A DNA stretch of 64,000 nucleotides, from positions 11,277 through 75,276 of the forward strand of contig DATJXV010000011.1 of assembly GCA_035499955.1 (NCBI GenBank), given 5' to 3'. This DNA is from Casimicrobiaceae bacterium. GTDB taxonomy: Bacteria; Pseudomonadota; Gammaproteobacteria; Burkholderiales; Casimicrobiaceae. The notes beneath the pieces were generated by a model. That model saw only the letters and a list, made by a program, of their open reading frames with translations, made no database searches and had not been told where the DNA came from. Positions 46,953-55,736 of this stretch are shown here, one piece after another; positions within the stretch are counted from its first letter, which is position 1; each line of letters begins with the position of its first letter. The translations under genes were made by a program, and so were the position numbers.

Positions 46953-46994
46953 TTGATCTATGTCATGGGTGCGTCGCACAAATTGCGGTAACAT
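46953..46994 (+). promoter_or_regulatory. FNR/FixK-type class II promoter of the DUF3141 cassette
   Basis: TTGAT-CTAT-GTCAT at 46953-46966 (centre 46959.5) and TAACAT at 46989-46994. Centre +41.5 = 47001; ATG at 47002. Confidence 0.65.
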
Positions 46995-47001
46995 CGCCGA
47001 T

Positions 47002-47328
47002 ATGAGCGACAAGTCGAGCGATCTCGGCGGCAGCTGGTGGGCGAAGAACCTGGAAGATGTCGACCGTGAGGTCGCGCGCATGGCGAGCCTGTGCAAGGTG
47101 CGCCTGCTCGATCCCGGCGTGATCGAGCGCGTGCTGCACAACGACGCCACGGTCTGCGGCACGCAGAACAAGGCGGCGTTCGACAAGCTGCGTAATGCCC
47201 TCATGATGCATTATCACGTTCGTGACAAGGCCGTCGGCGTCATCGGCGAGACGGCCACCGCGGAAGTCATCGCGGAGATCGTCGCGAACCTCCAAAAGCG
47301 GCTCGGCAACCAGCTCGGGGGCGGCTAG
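47002..47328 (+). CDS. Small hypothetical helical protein (108 aa)
   Basis: Typical codon pattern. The ORF-track start at 46960 lies inside the FNR box, so ATG 47002 is preferred. Confidence 0.65.
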   Translation: MSDKSSDLGGSWWAKNLEDVDREVARMASLCKVRLLDPGVIERVLHNDATVCGTQNKAAFDKLRNALMMHYHVRDKAVGVIGETATAEVIAEIVANLQKRLGNQLGGG

Positions 47329-47383
47329 GCATTACCCCGCTCGACGTTGCCCGCCGCGCCATTCCCACGAAAGGCACCGGCAA

Positions 47384-53193: not shown

Positions 53194-53207
53194 AGCCAGG
53201 AGCCAAG

Positions 53208-53990
53208 ATGAGCCAGGACAAGCCACGCCAGGTGCTGAGCGGCCGCAAGGCCCTCGTCATCGGCATCGCCAACGATTCCTCGATCGCGTACGGCTGCGCG
53301 AAGGCGTTCCGCGAGTTGGGCGCCGACCTCGCCGTCACGTATCTCAACGAGAAGGCGCGCCCCTATGTCGAGCCGCTTGCACGCGAAGTGCAGGCCGAGA
53401 TCTTCCTGCCGCTCGACGTCGCGGTGCCGGGCGGGCTCGAGTCCGTGTTCGACGAGGTGACGAGGAAGTGGGGCCGCCTCGACATGCTCGTGCATTCGAT
53501 CGCCTTCGCGCCGAAGGAGGACTTGCAGGGCGGCTTGCTCAATTGCTCCGCCCAAGGCTTCGCCAAGGCGATGGACGTGTCATGCCACTCCTTCGTGCGC
53601 ATGGCGAAGCTCGCCGCGCCGCTCATGAAGGAGGGCGGAACCATGTTCGCCATGAGCTACTACGGCGCCAACAAGGTCGTGCCCACCTACAGCGTGATGG
53701 GGCCCGTGAAGGCCGCGCTCGAGGCGTGTTGCCGCTACCTGGCCTACGAGCTCGGCCCGCAAGGGATTCGCGTGCACGCCATATCACCGGGACCGCTCAA
53801 GACGCGCGCCGCGTCGGGACTCAAGGACTTCGACATCCTGCTCACCGAGGCCGCGCAGCGCGCGCCGATCGGCGAGCTCGTGGACATCATGGACGTCGGC
53901 TTCGCCTGCGCCTATCTCGCGACACCGTTCGCCCGCAGGCTTTCCGGCGAGACGCTTTACGTCGACGGCGGCGTCAACATCATGGCGTGA
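53208..53990 (+). CDS. fabI: Enoyl-ACP/CoA reductase, FabI family (probably secondary paralogue)
   Basis: GIANDSSIAYG, HSIAFAP, YSVMGPVKAALE, ISPGPLKTRAA. Confidence 0.9.
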   Translation: MSQDKPRQVLSGRKALVIGIANDSSIAYGCAKAFRELGADLAVTYLNEKARPYVEPLAREVQAEIFLPLDVAVPGGLESVFDEVTRKWGRLDMLVHSIAFAPKEDLQGGLLNCSAQGFAKAMDVSCHSFVRMAKLAAPLMKEGGTMFAMSYYGANKVVPTYSVMGPVKAALEACCRYLAYELGPQGIRVHAISPGPLKTRAASGLKDFDILLTEAAQRAPIGELVDIMDVGFACAYLATPFARRLSGETLYVDGGVNIMA

Positions 53991-54041
53991 CCGTCGCGGT
54001 CGCGAGCTCCGCGACCGCAGCGCCCTACCGGGACCCTCCAG

Positions 54042-55736
54042 ATGAGCCGGATTGCGCCGATGGATGTGCCCCGCCGCGCGCTGCGCCTCGACGTGGTCGC
54101 CGGTCTCACGGCCGCCGCGGTGGTCCTGCCCAAGGCGATGGCCTACGCGACCGTCGCGGGGCTGCCCGTTGCGGTCGGCCTGTACACCGCGTTCGTCCCG
54201 ATGGCGGTCTACGCGCTGCTCGGCTCGTCGCGCGTGCTGAGCGTCAGCTCGACCGCCACGCTGGCCATCCTCGCAGGCACCGAGCTCGGCCTCGCGGTGC
54301 CGGACGGCGACCCCTCGAAGCTCGTGACGGCCACGGCCACGCTGACCGTTCTCGTGGGCGCGATGCTCGTGCTCGCAAGGCTGATGAAGCTCGGGTTCGT
54401 GGCGAACTTCATCTCGACGCCGGTGCTGACGGGGTTCAAGGCGGGGATCGGGCTCGTCATCGTGCTGGACCAGGTGCCGAAGCTGCTCGGTGTTCACATC
54501 ACCAAGCAAGCGTTCTTTGCTGACGTGCTGAGCATCGCGCATCACGTTCCGGAGACCTCGCTGATCACGCTCGCGGTGGGCGTGGCCACGTTCGCCGTCC
54601 TGATCGGCATGGAACGACGGTGGCCGCATTCCCCGGCGCCGCTGGTCGCGGTCGGCGGCGCCATCGCGGCCTCGTGGCTCCTCGGCCTGAAGGCGATGGG
54701 CGTCTCGATCGTCGGCGTGATTCCGCAGGGACTGCCGTCGCTCACGCTGCCGGATCCTGCGCTCGTCGAGCAGATGCTGCCGGGCGCGCTCGGAGTGGCC
54801 CTCATGAGCTTCACCGAATCGATCGCGGCGGGCCGCGCCTTCGTGCGTCCCGACGATCCTCCGATCGACGCGAATCGCGAGCTGATCGCAACGGGCGCAG
54901 CCAATCTCGCCGGCGGGCTCTTCGGCGCGATGCCGGCGGGTGGGGGCACGTCGCAGACGGCCGTCGTGCGTGCCGTGGGCGGGCAGTCGCAGAAGGCATC
55001 CCTGGTGACCGCGGGAGCGGCCGCGGCGACGATGCTGCTGCTCGCTCCCATCCTCGGACTCATGCCGCACGCGACGCTGGCAGCGGTGGTCATCGTCTAC
55101 TCCGTCGGCTTGATCCGGCCGGCGGAGTTTCTGGCCATCCGCAACGTGCGCACGATGGAATTCCGCTGGGCGCTGATCGCCTGCGTCGGCGTGCTCGTGT
55201 TCGGCACGCTCAAGGGTATCGTCGTGGCCATTATCGTGTCGATGATCGGGCTCGCGAGCCAGGTGGCCCATCCTCGCGTGTCCGTCATCGGCCGCAAGCG
55301 CGGCGCCGACGTGCTGCGCCCCGTGTCTCCCGAGCATCCGGACGACGAGACGTTCGAGGGCCTGCTGATCGTCCGGCCGGAGGGCCGCCTCTTCTTCGCC
55401 AACGCGCAGAACGTGTCCGACCGGATCAATGCGCTCGTCGAGGAGCACAAGCCGCGAGTGGTCGCCCTCGACATGAGCCGGGTGCCCGACCTCGAGTACT
55501 CGGCGCTGCAGGCGCTGATGGAGGGCGAGCGGCAGGCGACGCAGCGAGGCGCAACGGTGTGGCTTGCCGACCTCAACCCCGGCGTCCTCGAGGTCGTGCG
55601 CCGCGCCGGCTTCGATCAGCGCCTCGGCCCCGAACGGTTGCTGTTCAACGCGCGTGCGGCCATCGAGCGTTATCGGGCGTCGCACGGTGCGCCCGGCGAA
55701 CCGCGTCCGAGCGAAAGGTCGAACAGCGGAACGTGA
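54042..55736 (+). CDS. SulP/SLC26 anion transporter with STAS domain
   Basis: PKAMAYATVAG, GLYTA, DANRELIATGAAN, RPEGRLFFANA; start may be ATG 54060. Confidence 0.92.
   Translation: MSRIAPMDVPRRALRLDVVAGLTAAAVVLPKAMAYATVAGLPVAVGLYTAFVPMAVYALLGSSRVLSVSSTATLAILAGTELGLAVPDGDPSKLVTATATLTVLVGAMLVLARLMKLGFVANFISTPVLTGFKAGIGLVIVLDQVPKLLGVHITKQAFFADVLSIAHHVPETSLITLAVGVATFAVLIGMERRWPHSPAPLVAVGGAIAASWLLGLKAMGVSIVGVIPQGLPSLTLPDPALVEQMLPGALGVALMSFTESIAAGRAFVRPDDPPIDANRELIATGAANLAGGLFGAMPAGGGTSQTAVVRAVGGQSQKASLVTAGAAAATMLLLAPILGLMPHATLAAVVIVYSVGLIRPAEFLAIRNVRTMEFRWALIACVGVLVFGTLKGIVVAIIVSMIGLASQVAHPRVSVIGRKRGADVLRPVSPEHPDDETFEGLLIVRPEGRLFFANAQNVSDRINALVEEHKPRVVALDMSRVPDLEYSALQALMEGERQATQRGATVWLADLNPGVLEVVRRAGFDQRLGPERLLFNARAAIERYRASHGAPGEPRPSERSNSGT

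Follow-up and report, generated by a model that had tools for sequence, protein, structure and literature searches.

The stretch of DNA analysed here (the window, 64 kb in all), from an uncultured Burkholderiales bacterium, carries eight genes in a row at 47002-55736, all on the + strand. From open reading frames and family profile matches, they are read as a small ORF of 108 aa (47002..47328); a 789-aa DUF3141 protein (47384..49753); a short Pta/Ptb-type phosphate acyltransferase (49758..50702, alternative start ATG 49770); an acetate/propionate-family acyl kinase, Ack (50702..51883); subunits A (AtoD/ScoA-like, 51893..52540) and B (AtoA/ScoB-like, 52543..53193) of a class I CoA-transferase; a FabI-type NADH enoyl reductase (53208..53990); and a SulP-family anion transporter with a STAS domain (54042..55736). 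The spacings are, in gene order, 55 nt, 4 nt (16 nt if Pta begins at ATG 49770), a 1-nt overlap of the Ack start with the Pta stop, 9, 2, 14, and 51 nt; genes and gaps are identical to those listed in an earlier note on this DNA. Genes for a sulfatase and for Mla lipid transport lie upstream of the cluster. No PHA gene, thiolase, or hydratase was found within the 64-kb window.

The earlier note took the SulP protein for the exporter of acids made by the cluster, a role that finds no support here: a GC-rich hairpin (53992..54022, + strand, 9-bp perfect stem) parts its gene from fabI, a beta-class carbonic anhydrase gene comes next, and in other genomes SulP is paired with polyphosphate kinase 2 (PPK2). 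The hairpin (-25.7 kcal/mol, z-score -1.6, weak in significance) has no T-run and may possibly be a partial terminator or an mRNA-stabilising element. The carbonic anhydrase gene (55803..56666, + strand; PF00484) lies directly 3' of SulP, with a Shine-Dalgarno sequence GAGGTGG before its start, and is found near the cluster in 9/80 relatives. The window holds two PPK2 genes, including one at 60411..61289 on the - strand (PF03976), and a PPK2 of at least 60% identity occurs within 10 kb on either side of the cluster in 31/80 relatives. The gene order in Burkholderia sp. RPE67 is PPK2-SulP-DUF3141-pta-ack-fabI, its SulP being 57% identical to ours, and PPK2-SulP also directly adjoins the module in relative L059. 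With an orthologue within 10 kb of the cluster in 12/80 relatives, seldom adjacent, SulP is, as judged from gene neighbourhoods, a loosely linked accessory.

Conserved core and accessory genes

The earlier note regarded all eight genes as one cassette. They are contiguous here, but only part of the set is kept across relatives. In close relatives, Pta follows DUF3141 in 71/74 loci, Ack comes next in 68/72, and FabI in 54/62; the CoA-transferase stands between Ack and FabI in only 12/62, the small protein is immediately 5' of DUF3141 in 15/76, and SulP is rarely adjacent. On gene order, therefore, the conserved unit is DUF3141-Pta/Ptb-like-Ack-FabI alone, and the CoA-transferase, small protein, and SulP are accessories. 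This core is found in alpha-, beta-, and gammaproteobacteria, in the same order in Burkholderia sp. RPE67, Sinorhizobium medicae, R. solanacearum, C. necator N-1, and P. veronii and in permuted order in Caballeronia and Methylorubrum. The note's mention of similar clusters in rhizobia and Cupriavidus is correct, as shown by S. medicae pSymA (DUF3141-pta-ack-fabI) and by C. necator N-1, where a DUF3141 protein 65% identical to ours is followed by pta-ack-fabI.

The cluster type is already known: it is that of the S. meliloti orfA-pta-ackA-fabI operon (Summers, Denton & McDermott 1999, as related in PMC8231600), which has the same four families in the same order. The Pta, Ack, and FabI of the rhizobial operon fall into the same NCBIfam subfamilies as those of the window. 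The S. meliloti operon is controlled by PhoB and induced by phosphate starvation, whereas in the window the box is of the FNR type, with no PHO box; compared with that operon, the window adds the small ORF, predicted to be leaderless, the AtoDA-type CoA-transferase, and SulP. Here, a CoA-transferase and an oxygen-sensor-type promoter are added to a known and widespread core.

Promoter region and oxygen control

An FNR/CRP-family box, TTGATctatGTCAT (46953..46966, + strand, centre 46959.5), matches TTGAT-N4-ATCAA at 8/10 positions. A -10-like hexamer, TAACAT (46989..46994, + strand), ends 7 nt before ATG 47002, a start codon backed by homologues and lacking a Shine-Dalgarno sequence. Such a short distance implies a leaderless transcript, and the spacing of box, hexamer, and ATG fits a predicted class II promoter driving a leaderless mRNA. 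Relatives L002, L025, and L055 have an imperfect box of the GTCAT/GTCAC type at an equal distance from the small ORF, together with -10-like hexamers (GCTAAT, TAGAAT, and CGTAAT, respectively) 3-8 nt before the ATG; in L006 a similar box is placed further upstream. Of 78 related loci, 30 have an exact TTGA-N6-TCAA box in the 350 nt that precede the first gene of the cluster, and the density of such boxes there is 56-fold that in the rest of the same loci (1.14 versus 0.020 per kb). The FNR-type class II promoter claimed earlier fits the geometry and the enrichment of boxes among relatives, but the window's own box is imperfect and is not significant alone (6 one-mismatch sites in the window versus 1.9 expected; at least 6 in 2/100 shuffles). 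Distant clusters have no boxes of this kind. Taking these sequence patterns together, an FNR-family protein is a plausible regulator in this lineage.

The lxa locus of B. cenocepacia (Sass et al. 2013, PMC3721108) recalls this arrangement. It is strongly induced by low oxygen, has TGA-N6-TCA (Anr/FNR-like) motifs, and is required for anoxic survival. Besides PHA genes, it includes genes for an acetate kinase, for a phosphate acetyl/butyryl transferase, and for a transporter of the SulP family. It differs in being a 50-gene island, no pathway having been established for it, with many stress proteins absent from the window, and in having a class I-annotated PhaC and PhaB instead of DUF3141. We count the box enrichment in relatives and the lxa induction in favour of low-oxygen control; the imperfect box of the window, the distant clusters without boxes, and the PhoB response of S. 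meliloti count against it.

Enzymes of the module and their link to PHB

The acyltransferase scores 527 bits on NF008852 (cut-off 413) and is nearer to the Ptb models (301-313 bits) than to classical Pta (TIGR00651, only 88). Ack reaches 349 bits on PF00871 and 344 on TIGR00016 (cut-off 293), and 445 on NF005462, which is under the cut-off of 486. Subunit A of the CoA-transferase passes TIGR02429 (223 bits, cut-off 128) and falls just below the AtoD model NF007394 (306 versus 315), and subunit B passes TIGR02428 (303 bits, cut-off 244) and has the SENG motif. FabI scores 448 bits on NF005717 (PRK07533; cut-off 337), with 261 on the second-best FabI model, and the cluster-linked FabIs of alpha-, beta-, and gammaproteobacteria all belong to this subfamily. 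Our FabI keeps Y146, Y156, and K163; cluster FabIs in general have Asp or Glu at the E. coli R204 position (Asp in ours) and have lost K205, whereas four housekeeping FabIs, R. solanacearum's own paralogue among them, retain K205. From these alignments, the cluster FabI is a dedicated subfamily without the basic residues of housekeeping FabIs. The note had pointed out that a hydratase (MaoC) is missing, which holds for the window; some relatives have MaoC fused to Pta, or just 5' of it, inside their DUF3141 clusters.

The DUF3141 protein (PF11339, 854 bits) is built as a PhaC-like alpha/beta hydrolase that is extended C-terminally by helices and ends in a tail rich in Lys, Ala, and Pro. The PhaC-like Cys/Asp/His set noticed earlier is present as GNCQGG (C215), GDNIT (D379), and GHLG (H418), and these motifs are invariant in alpha-, beta-, and gammaproteobacterial DUF3141 proteins of 39-66% identity. 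Its scores on the PhaC class III and class I models are weak (32 and 25 bits; cut-offs 365-623), as is its sole PDB match, PHA synthase 9knj (E 5e-4), and its structure model is too poor (pLDDT 49) to show the geometry of the putative active site. Since a genuine PhaC is present alongside DUF3141 in Pseudomonas islands and P. veronii, DUF3141 is unlikely to be the main synthase. The small protein has no Pfam or NCBIfam match and 486 homologues, every one annotated hypothetical, with W13, D21, E23, R26, C31, C52, and H70 invariant; a homologue in R. solanacearum (38% identity) is encoded 3' of fabI. Its AF2 model (pLDDT 67) has four helices, and a fold search gave no match.

Neighbourhoods, insertions, MaoC-Pta fusions, and literature on the PhaR regulon make the tie of the cluster to PHB metabolism well supported. 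The P. veronii operon has a phasin gene on one side and phbB-phbC on the other; about 12/80 relatives have phaC, phaB, or a phasin gene within 10 kb of the module; and every Pseudomonas class I phaC island carries DUF3141 along with phaR and phaP. Several relatives have a 3-hydroxybutyrate dehydrogenase gene (TIGR01963, 348 bits, cut-off 307) inserted 5' of the CoA-transferase; the L062 cluster has acquired Hbd (NF004474, 461 bits, cut-off 408), and the L018 cluster an AtoE-like transporter. In B. diazoefficiens, blr3456-blr3459 (hypothetical-pta-ackA-...) belong to the PhaR core regulon and are 7.2-fold up in a phaR mutant under microoxia; they are presumably the PhaR-repressed counterpart of the module.

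A stress operon not specific to PHB would explain some features. Pta-Ack would then handle acetyl-phosphate and acetate overflow and provide ATP or an acetyl-phosphate signal; FabI would serve as a spare reductase of fatty-acid synthesis, and DUF3141 would act on other esters in lipid remodelling, whether as lipase, thioesterase, or acyltransferase. The PhoB control reported for S. meliloti (PMC8231600), the short stand-alone DUF3141 proteins that adjoin metal-efflux genes in Legionella and Methylocystis, the score of FabI above the NCBI "enoyl-ACP reductase FabI" equivalog cut-off, and the upstream sulfatase and Mla genes could be read in this way. We consider it very improbable given the recurrent linkage to phaC, phaB, phaP, phaR, bdh, and hbd in three proteobacterial classes, the PhaR regulon membership, the MaoC domain of (R)-hydratase type that is fused to Pta, and the cysteine nucleophile, which is also that of PhaC and PhaZ.

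Direction of flux

We tentatively favour, at just short of even confidence, a low-oxygen module that would convert PHB to acids while making ATP at substrate level and disposing of NADH. When oxygen runs low, an activator of the FNR family would turn on a leaderless transcript starting from the small ORF. The DUF3141 cysteine would accept 3-hydroxybutyryl units from the polymer, and thiolysis would pass them to CoA. Part of the 3HB-CoA would be dehydrated to crotonyl-CoA by a hydratase from elsewhere in the genome (the Pta-fused one in relatives), and the dedicated FabI would reduce this with NADH to butyryl-CoA as an internal electron sink; the remainder would yield acetyl-CoA by oxidation to acetoacetyl-CoA and subsequent cleavage. 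From these acyl-CoAs, the Ptb-like transferase would make acyl-phosphates and the Ack-type kinase free acids and ATP, while the AtoDA/ScoAB-type CoA-transferase would shuttle CoA among acetoacetate, 3HB-derived acids, and acetyl-CoA. Overall, the cell would form ATP from its storage polymer in redox balance and with no need of a terminal acceptor; the genes for SulP, carbonic anhydrase, and PPK2 would form a low-oxygen and reserve-material neighbourhood outside the core pathway. The same logic, including CoA transfer among short acids and crotonyl-CoA reduction as an electron sink, is found in the acetate/butyrate fermentation of clostridia, with Ptb-Buk, Pta-Ack, CtfAB, and NADH-dependent enoyl-CoA reductases. 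The window differs in having an Ack-family kinase in place of Buk and a FabI-type reductase in place of Bcd-Etf or Ter, and the proposed substrate is an internal polymer.

NADH-dependent enoyl reduction towards butyryl-CoA is effectively irreversible. This and the distinct FabI subfamily argue for the catabolic direction, as do the bdh, Hbd, and AtoE-like insertions with the MaoC-Pta fusions, and the improbability of DUF3141 as the main synthase. The granule-associated alpha/beta hydrolases A0671 and B1632 of R. eutropha H16, which we take to be DUF3141 proteins, are reportedly granule-bound, and their deletion is said to impair PHB mobilisation slightly (Sznajder et al. 2015). We count this on the same side, the reported evidence comprising only localisation and a minor mobilisation phenotype. 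Against the catabolic direction we count the absence of PHA, thiolase, and hydratase genes from the window and the description of the S. meliloti enzymes as acetate-specific Pta/Ack. In the literature searched, no assay of the module enzymes on PHB or C4 substrates was found.

Two further counterpoints, the classical role of oxygen limitation in triggering PHB accumulation rather than breakdown and the true synthases in the position of DUF3141 in some taxa, speak for the reading that PHA is a fermentation product of the same module. Pta-Ack would convert part of the acetyl-CoA to acetate and ATP, the rest would go with NAD(P)H into PHA, and MaoC and FabI (3HB-CoA to crotonyl-CoA to butyryl-CoA) would feed the elongation of chains to 3-hydroxyhexanoate units, approximately doubling the electron-sink capacity; DUF3141 would be a specialised or auxiliary polymerase or a transacylase, for which the likeness of GNCQGG to the PhaC box speaks. 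The phaC-(phaJ/MaoC-)pta-ackA-fabI clusters of Burkholderia group D, Halomonas, and Cobetia (PMC8231600, PMC8686332) share the Pta, Ack, and FabI partners, in many cases with a MaoC-Pta fusion, and the adjoining enzyme acts at the PHB/3HB-CoA junction; that enzyme is a genuine PhaC, 2-24% identical to the rhizobial orfA product (PMC8231600), whereas the window has DUF3141. Burkholderia group D strains produce P(3HB-co-3HHx), the lxa authors suggest PHA synthesis as an electron sink (PMC3721108), and B. diazoefficiens phaC2 is a FixK2 target. Nevertheless, we regard this reading as unlikely, given the low PhaC-model scores of DUF3141, the genuine PhaC beside it in Pseudomonas, and the insertion of 3HB dehydrogenase, AtoDA-type transferase, and Hbd, which are catabolic or ketone-body enzymes. 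Moreover, R. eutropha phaC1 and S. meliloti phbC mutants are PHB-negative although DUF3141 genes are present.

The PPK2 genes raise the possibility of anaerobic acid uptake of the PAO/GAO type, in which polyphosphate would regenerate ATP or ADP via PPK2, Ack and Pta (with the CoA-transferase) would activate imported acetate or butyrate to acyl-CoA for storage as PHA, and SulP would carry the accompanying anion flux. Besides the two PPK2 genes of the window, those within 10 kb in relatives, and the PPK2-SulP pairs of RPE67 and L059, the AtoE-like uptake transporter in L018 and the S. meliloti operon's place in the PHO regulon (PMC8231600) would suit this scheme, and several genome papers take the acetate-to-PHA direction for granted. 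It seems quite improbable to us: the storage of acetate as PHB calls for neither FabI nor MaoC, the enoyl reduction cannot run back from butyryl-CoA to crotonyl-CoA, nothing in the cluster supplies reducing power, the window lacks genes for the synthesis of glycogen or PHA, and the PPK2 there is on the opposite strand, 4.7 kb off. Most likely, the module couples the polyester reserve of the cell to the making of ATP and the removal of NADH when oxygen is short, the catabolic direction being the one that we tentatively favour.

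Gene content of the cluster and its conserved core

The genes of the window (G+C about 68%) were called by GC3-guided ORF calling and translation, and their families were assigned with Pfam and NCBIfam. Eight tightly packed genes, all on the + strand, span 47002-55736; their spacing (55, 4, -1, 9, 2, 14 and 51 nt) and the DUF3141 motifs GNCQGG, GDNIT and GHLG in the translation are exactly as the earlier note had described them. The first gene (47002-47328) encodes a small protein of 108 aa with no family match in Pfam or NCBIfam, and the second a DUF3141 protein of 789 aa. The third product is a phosphate acyltransferase of the short Pta/Ptb type (NF008852, 527 bits against a cut-off of 413) that reaches neither the classical Pta equivalog (TIGR00651, 88 vs 311 bits) nor the phosphate butyryltransferase equivalog (TIGR02706, 301 vs 410 bits); with about 300-313 bits on the NCBIfam Ptb models, it is nearer to these than to classical Pta. 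The acetate/propionate-family kinase (Ack; Pfam/NCBIfam) comes next. Cluster Acks carry the motif GFTA and acetate kinases GFTP, at a residue that we take to belong to the acyl pocket. Between Ack and FabI lie the two subunits of a class I CoA-transferase of the AtoDA/ScoAB type, which pass their family cut-offs (TIGR02429, 223 vs 128; TIGR02428, 303 vs 244), with an AtoD equivalog score slightly under its cut-off (306 vs 315) and a SENG glutamate motif in subunit B. FabI (53208-53990; NF005717, 448 vs 337 bits) and a STAS-domain transporter of the SulP family (PF00916, 285 bits; PF01740, 59 bits) complete the series.

The order DUF3141-pta-ack-fabI recurs both in relatives and in distant proteobacteria, as the earlier note had stated for rhizobia and Cupriavidus. 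Across 80 related loci, with denominators that vary by feature, Pta directly follows DUF3141 in 71 of 74, Ack is next in 68 of 72 and FabI next in 54 of 62; the CoA-transferase pair stands between Ack and FabI in 12 of 62. The same order is shared by Burkholderia sp. RPE67, the pSymA replicon of S. medicae, the R. solanacearum megaplasmid, C. necator N-1 and a P. veronii plasmid; it is permuted in Caballeronia and Methylorubrum, and the Azospirillum cluster has no fabI. Pta, Ack and FabI of the distant clusters share their NCBIfam subfamilies with the window proteins. The module occurs in rhizobia, Cupriavidus, Ralstonia, Burkholderia, Pseudomonas islands and many uncultured soil Burkholderiales. 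An "ORF-pta-ack-fabI" operon of S. meliloti was described by Summers et al. 1999, as cited in PMC8231600. By its predicted families (DUF3141, short Pta of PRK11890, Ack like PRK07058, FabI of PRK07533, closely set on one strand), the window cluster can be assigned to this orfA-pta-ackA-fabI type, although of the two only the window has CoA-transferase genes set between Ack and FabI.

Sequence features of DUF3141, FabI and the small protein

The window DUF3141 protein matches PF11339 over residues 68-619 with 854 bits (cut-off 29.7), and its nearest relatives (75-84% identity) come from uncultured Burkholderiales and Casimicrobiaceae genomes. It has what appears to be a G-x-C-x-G-G nucleophile box of the PhaC type (GNCQGG), together with D379 and H418. 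C215, D379 and H418 are invariant in 8 alpha-, beta- and gammaproteobacterial DUF3141 proteins (39-66% identity) and in 19 close relatives, where the motifs take the forms GNCQxG, GD(N/Q)I(T/S)PP and GHL(G/A)IFVS. A classification paper assigns DUF3141 to a Cys-Asp-His group that includes PhaC and PhaZ. The PhaC models are not reached (TIGR01838, 25 vs 623 bits; TIGR01836, 32 vs 365 bits), and the NCBIfam alignment to them is limited to the cap-to-Asp region; the single PDB match to the profile is a PhaC, 9knj, at a weak E of 5e-4. No PhaZ-family match was found in Pfam or NCBIfam at E <= 0.01. An AlphaFold2 model built with 19 close homologues (pLDDT 48.8, pTM 0.32) was too poor for a fold search, and the domain search returned no further match in the C-terminal 310 or the N-terminal 72 residues. 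Short DUF3141 forms without the C-terminal extension occur in Legionella and Methylocystis without pta-ack nearby, and that of Methylocystis adjoins ppk2. The window protein ends in a Lys/Ala/Pro/Arg-rich tail, KPKAARKKAPRKAAARKKAPRKATARQ (residues ~763-789, window 49670-49750), which is confined to close relatives and brings to mind the histone-like tails of PhaM and PhaF, two granule proteins.

The cluster FabI keeps the catalytic Tyr-x6-Lys, and our alignment shows no variation at the positions equivalent to Y146, Y156 and K163. In E. coli FabI, K201, R204 and K205 are said, by Rafi et al. in 2006, to be implicated in ACP docking. The window protein retains K201 and has Asp for R204 and Ile for K205. 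The R204 position is occupied by Asp or Glu in every cluster FabI compared, namely 7 distant sequences (L081, L082, L086, L087, L089 and L090 among the source loci) and about 51 close ones, and K205 is lost in all but the Methylorubrum protein; four housekeeping FabIs (E. coli, A. baumannii, N. gonorrhoeae and R. solanacearum) retain K205. R. solanacearum possesses both types. The cluster FabI is a distinct subfamily. Since the basic docking residues R204 and K205 are changed, it may favor CoA thioesters over ACP substrates, which we offer as a lead and not as a demonstration.

In the small-protein family, W13, D21, E23, R26, C31, C52 and H70 are invariant. A profile search of 1.84 billion proteins gave 243 clusters at 50% identity, all unannotated small stand-alone proteins with no informative fusion among them, and a structure model (pLDDT 67) had no structural match (best E 4.1). 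The gene lies immediately upstream of DUF3141 in 15 of 76 related loci; in R. solanacearum the homologue (L086:11403-11762) sits 3' of fabI instead, and in two related loci (L019 and L034) it adjoins the outer-membrane channel or glycoside hydrolase genes that also neighbor the window cluster. We discarded an alternative start at 46960 because it would place the upstream box within the coding sequence and because alignments with homologues begin at the MSDK start. One 259-aa database protein, P0250, combines a domain of the small-protein type with positions 1-27 of the DUF3141 profile, through either a genuine fusion or an error of gene calling over the 55-nt gap.

Upstream boxes and predicted regulation

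An FNR-type promoter had been claimed for the cluster. The box in question, TTGATctatGTCAT at 46953-46966, agrees with the TTGAT-N4-ATCAA consensus at 8 of 10 positions, and it is unremarkable by itself: the window has 6 one-mismatch FNR-type sites against 1.9 expected. Its centre lies 42 nt 5' of the ATG at 47002, a spacing that would fit the -41.5 class II geometry provided that the transcript begins at this ATG. This ATG lacks a Shine-Dalgarno sequence, and a TAACAT hexamer stops 7 nt short of it. Because the box spacing, the -10-like hexamer and the lack of a Shine-Dalgarno sequence are repeated in three related loci (L002, L025 and L055, with the same imperfect box type and a hexamer 3-8 nt before the ATG), the arrangement suggests a class II promoter making a leaderless mRNA.

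We surveyed the 350 nt before the first cluster gene in the 78 related loci having sufficient upstream sequence. Exact TTGA-N6-TCAA boxes occur there in 30 of the 78, at a density of 1.14 per kb that falls to 0.020 per kb over the other 1.48 Mb of these loci (a 56-fold enrichment), and near-matches in many more. Seven of 30 boxes elsewhere in the loci precede SulP, PPK2, carbonic anhydrase, GH63 or CoA-transferase genes. From this upstream enrichment across related loci, control by a regulator of the FNR/CRP family is a plausible trait of the cluster in this lineage, with the window's own box as an apparent weaker variant. For the claimed promoter, box type and position are kept in relatives and such boxes are strongly enriched across loci, but the window box alone lacks significance. 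No FNR-type or PHO-type boxes were seen upstream of the Cupriavidus, Ralstonia, Sinorhizobium, Azospirillum, Pseudomonas and Methylorubrum clusters, so oxygen control cannot be generalized beyond this lineage.

The S. meliloti operon is under PhoB control, again as cited in PMC8231600. Such control agrees with a PHB-independent stress operon; this explanation conflicts with the gene neighborhoods described below, and we consider it very improbable. Inspection of the sequence upstream of the window cluster showed no obvious PHO-box-like repeat.

The sole exact TTGAT-N4-GTCAA box of the window is located elsewhere, at 35873-35886. A HemG-like flavodoxin gene (35912-36490, Flavodoxin_5) lies 26 nt downstream of this box and is plausible as a candidate second member of the same oxygen-responsive regulon. 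Nearby are a GntR/FCD regulator (35056-35868, +) and a molybdoenzyme of the xanthine dehydrogenase family with MoCo-binding and FAD/2Fe-2S subunits (31165-35167, -); these genes appear unrelated to the cluster.

Links to PHB, a possible link to polyphosphate and the proposed mechanism

Neither phaC, phaB, a phasin gene nor MaoC is detectable within the 64-kb window, as had already been remarked for MaoC; outside the window, the association of the module with PHB is strong. The P. veronii operon is flanked by a divergent phasin gene and phbB-phbC, and about a dozen of 80 close relatives have phaC, phaB or phasin homologues within 10 kb. The phaC islands of P. aeruginosa additionally contain eutD (pta), ackA and fabI, and the place of DUF3141 beside fabI, a MaoC-Pta fusion and ackA is filled by a true PhaC in Burkholderia group D, Halomonas and Cobetia (PMC8231600, PMC8686332). 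In B. diazoefficiens, blr3456-blr3459 (hypothetical protein, pta, ackA, ...) belong to the PhaR-repressed core regulon and are 7.2-fold up in the phaR mutant under microoxia; we infer from synteny that blr3456 is the DUF3141 protein. Ketone-body enzyme genes are inserted into the cluster in relatives: a 3-hydroxybutyrate dehydrogenase precedes the CoA-transferase (TIGR01963, 348 vs 307), and single loci have a 3-hydroxybutyryl-CoA dehydrogenase (L062; NF004474, 461 vs 408) or an AtoE-like short-chain-acid transporter (L018). The hydratase missing from the window is in some relatives fused to Pta or just before it: a MaoC-type domain is joined to Pta in Caballeronia and Methylorubrum (MaoC-Pta genes at L087:9302-10663 and L090:3460-4869), and a MaoC-type hydratase stands between DUF3141 and Pta in L072, L074, L077, L079 and L080. 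The clusters bearing a true PhaC, like the classical increase in PHB under oxygen limitation, agree with the main rival scheme, in which the enzymes are the same but PHA itself, possibly C6-enriched via FabI, would be the electron sink and Pta-Ack would make ATP from acetyl-CoA; we regard this as rather unlikely.

SulP had been proposed to export the fermentation acids, a role that our results do not support. We dropped it as a member of a conserved operon: an orthologue (>= 70% identity) occurs anywhere within 10 kb in 12 of 80 loci and is seldom adjacent, and in the window a 9-bp GC hairpin lies 3' of FabI. The family models identify no substrate: TIGR00815 stays under its cut-off (358 vs 380), and the DauA and BicA equivalogs far under theirs. 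The beta-carbonic anhydrase gene (from 55803, Pfam) begins 66 nt after SulP with a good Shine-Dalgarno sequence. Burkholderia sp. RPE67 has the arrangement PPK2-SulP-DUF3141-pta-ack-fabI, with SulP 57% identical to that of the window and PPK2 72% identical to the window PPK2 at 60411-61289 (-); a second window PPK2 lies at 24323-25507 (-). PPK2-SulP pairs are found at L081:6359-8875 and L059:15361-17878, the latter locus having the order FabI-PPK2-SulP with overlapping PPK2 and SulP, and PPK2 is within 10 kb in 31 of 80 related loci. Given the hairpin, the carbonic anhydrase, the pairing with PPK2 and the scattered placement, SulP is a recurrent yet loosely placed partner that goes with PPK2 and carbonic anhydrase no less than with the acid-forming enzymes. 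Since the PPK2-SulP pair travels with the DUF3141 cluster, it points to a link between polyphosphate and the PHB-related module, and the SulP substrate may relate to phosphate or polyphosphate turnover. Acid uptake as in polyphosphate-accumulating organisms would account for the PPK2 association but leaves FabI unexplained, and we give it a low probability. Downstream of SulP, the carbonic anhydrase gene is accompanied by genes for an outer-membrane channel of the MetA-pathway type (~56.5-57.6 kb) and a GH63/MGH1-like glycoside hydrolase (57595-60300). Relatives have these genes around the cluster too, but differently ordered, suggesting that they form a mosaic "reserve-material / low-oxygen" island. 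No domain matches were found for three further neighbors (window 46069-46905, 335 aa in RPE67 and 158 aa in Azospirillum).

Based on these comparisons, we tentatively rank first a catabolic conversion of PHB to acids and ATP, somewhat short of an even call and with every catalytic step putative. The five functions of the conserved set, namely a PhaC-like cysteine enzyme, an (R)-hydratase, an NADH enoyl reductase, a Ptb-like transferase and an acyl kinase, would form a complete linear route from polymer to butyrate that uses one NADH and gives one ATP; a parallel oxidative branch via acetoacetyl-CoA to acetate would supply the NADH. In essence this is the scheme of the earlier note. We prefer this reading because NADH-dependent enoyl reduction proceeds only towards butyryl-CoA, because the enzymes inserted in the cluster are catabolic, and because DUF3141 coexists with true synthases and the phaC mutants known in model strains that carry DUF3141 are PHB-negative. 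Of the fermentation cassette in the earlier note, the PHB link is upheld by neighborhoods, insertions, MaoC fusions and the PhaR regulon, but SulP export is not. In its boldest form, which we think rather improbable, DUF3141 would be a new kind of PHB-mobilizing enzyme in a complete "PHB fermentation" enabling anoxia survival of aerobic proteobacteria. The ester-bond energy of the polymer would be conserved by passing 3HB units from the cysteine of the active site either to CoA or straight to phosphate. With a dedicated hydratase, FabI, a Ptb-like transferase and an Ack-like kinase, the monomer would serve as both ATP source and electron acceptor, and butyrate would be the end product; the module would be genomically coupled to a PPK2-SulP polyphosphate unit and aided by the small two-cysteine protein.

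The literature already records this type of cluster, how PhoB controls it in rhizobia, its low-oxygen Burkholderia relatives and its nearness to pha genes; the genome and literature papers describing it since 1999 assign no pathway, and our literature search found neither R. eutropha locus tags nor any described "PHB to butyrate" pathway. The window adds a variant in which a CoA-transferase is inserted, a conserved small protein with two cysteines is encoded and the predicted promoter is of the FNR type and leaderless. The cluster observation is real and its interpretation partly supported, and its value is a sharply testable hypothesis for an old operon rather than a new kind of system. It touches two old questions: how aerobic PHB accumulators draw maintenance energy from the polymer without oxygen, and why Pta-Ack genes lie beside PHA genes. 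The comparative picture of core, MaoC fusion, insertions, FabI subfamily, boxes and PPK2-SulP makes both testable. If confirmed, the PHB cycle would gain a fermentative branch, which would bear on nodule bacteroids, chronic hypoxic Burkholderia infections, wastewater phosphorus removal and the engineering of bioplastic strains.
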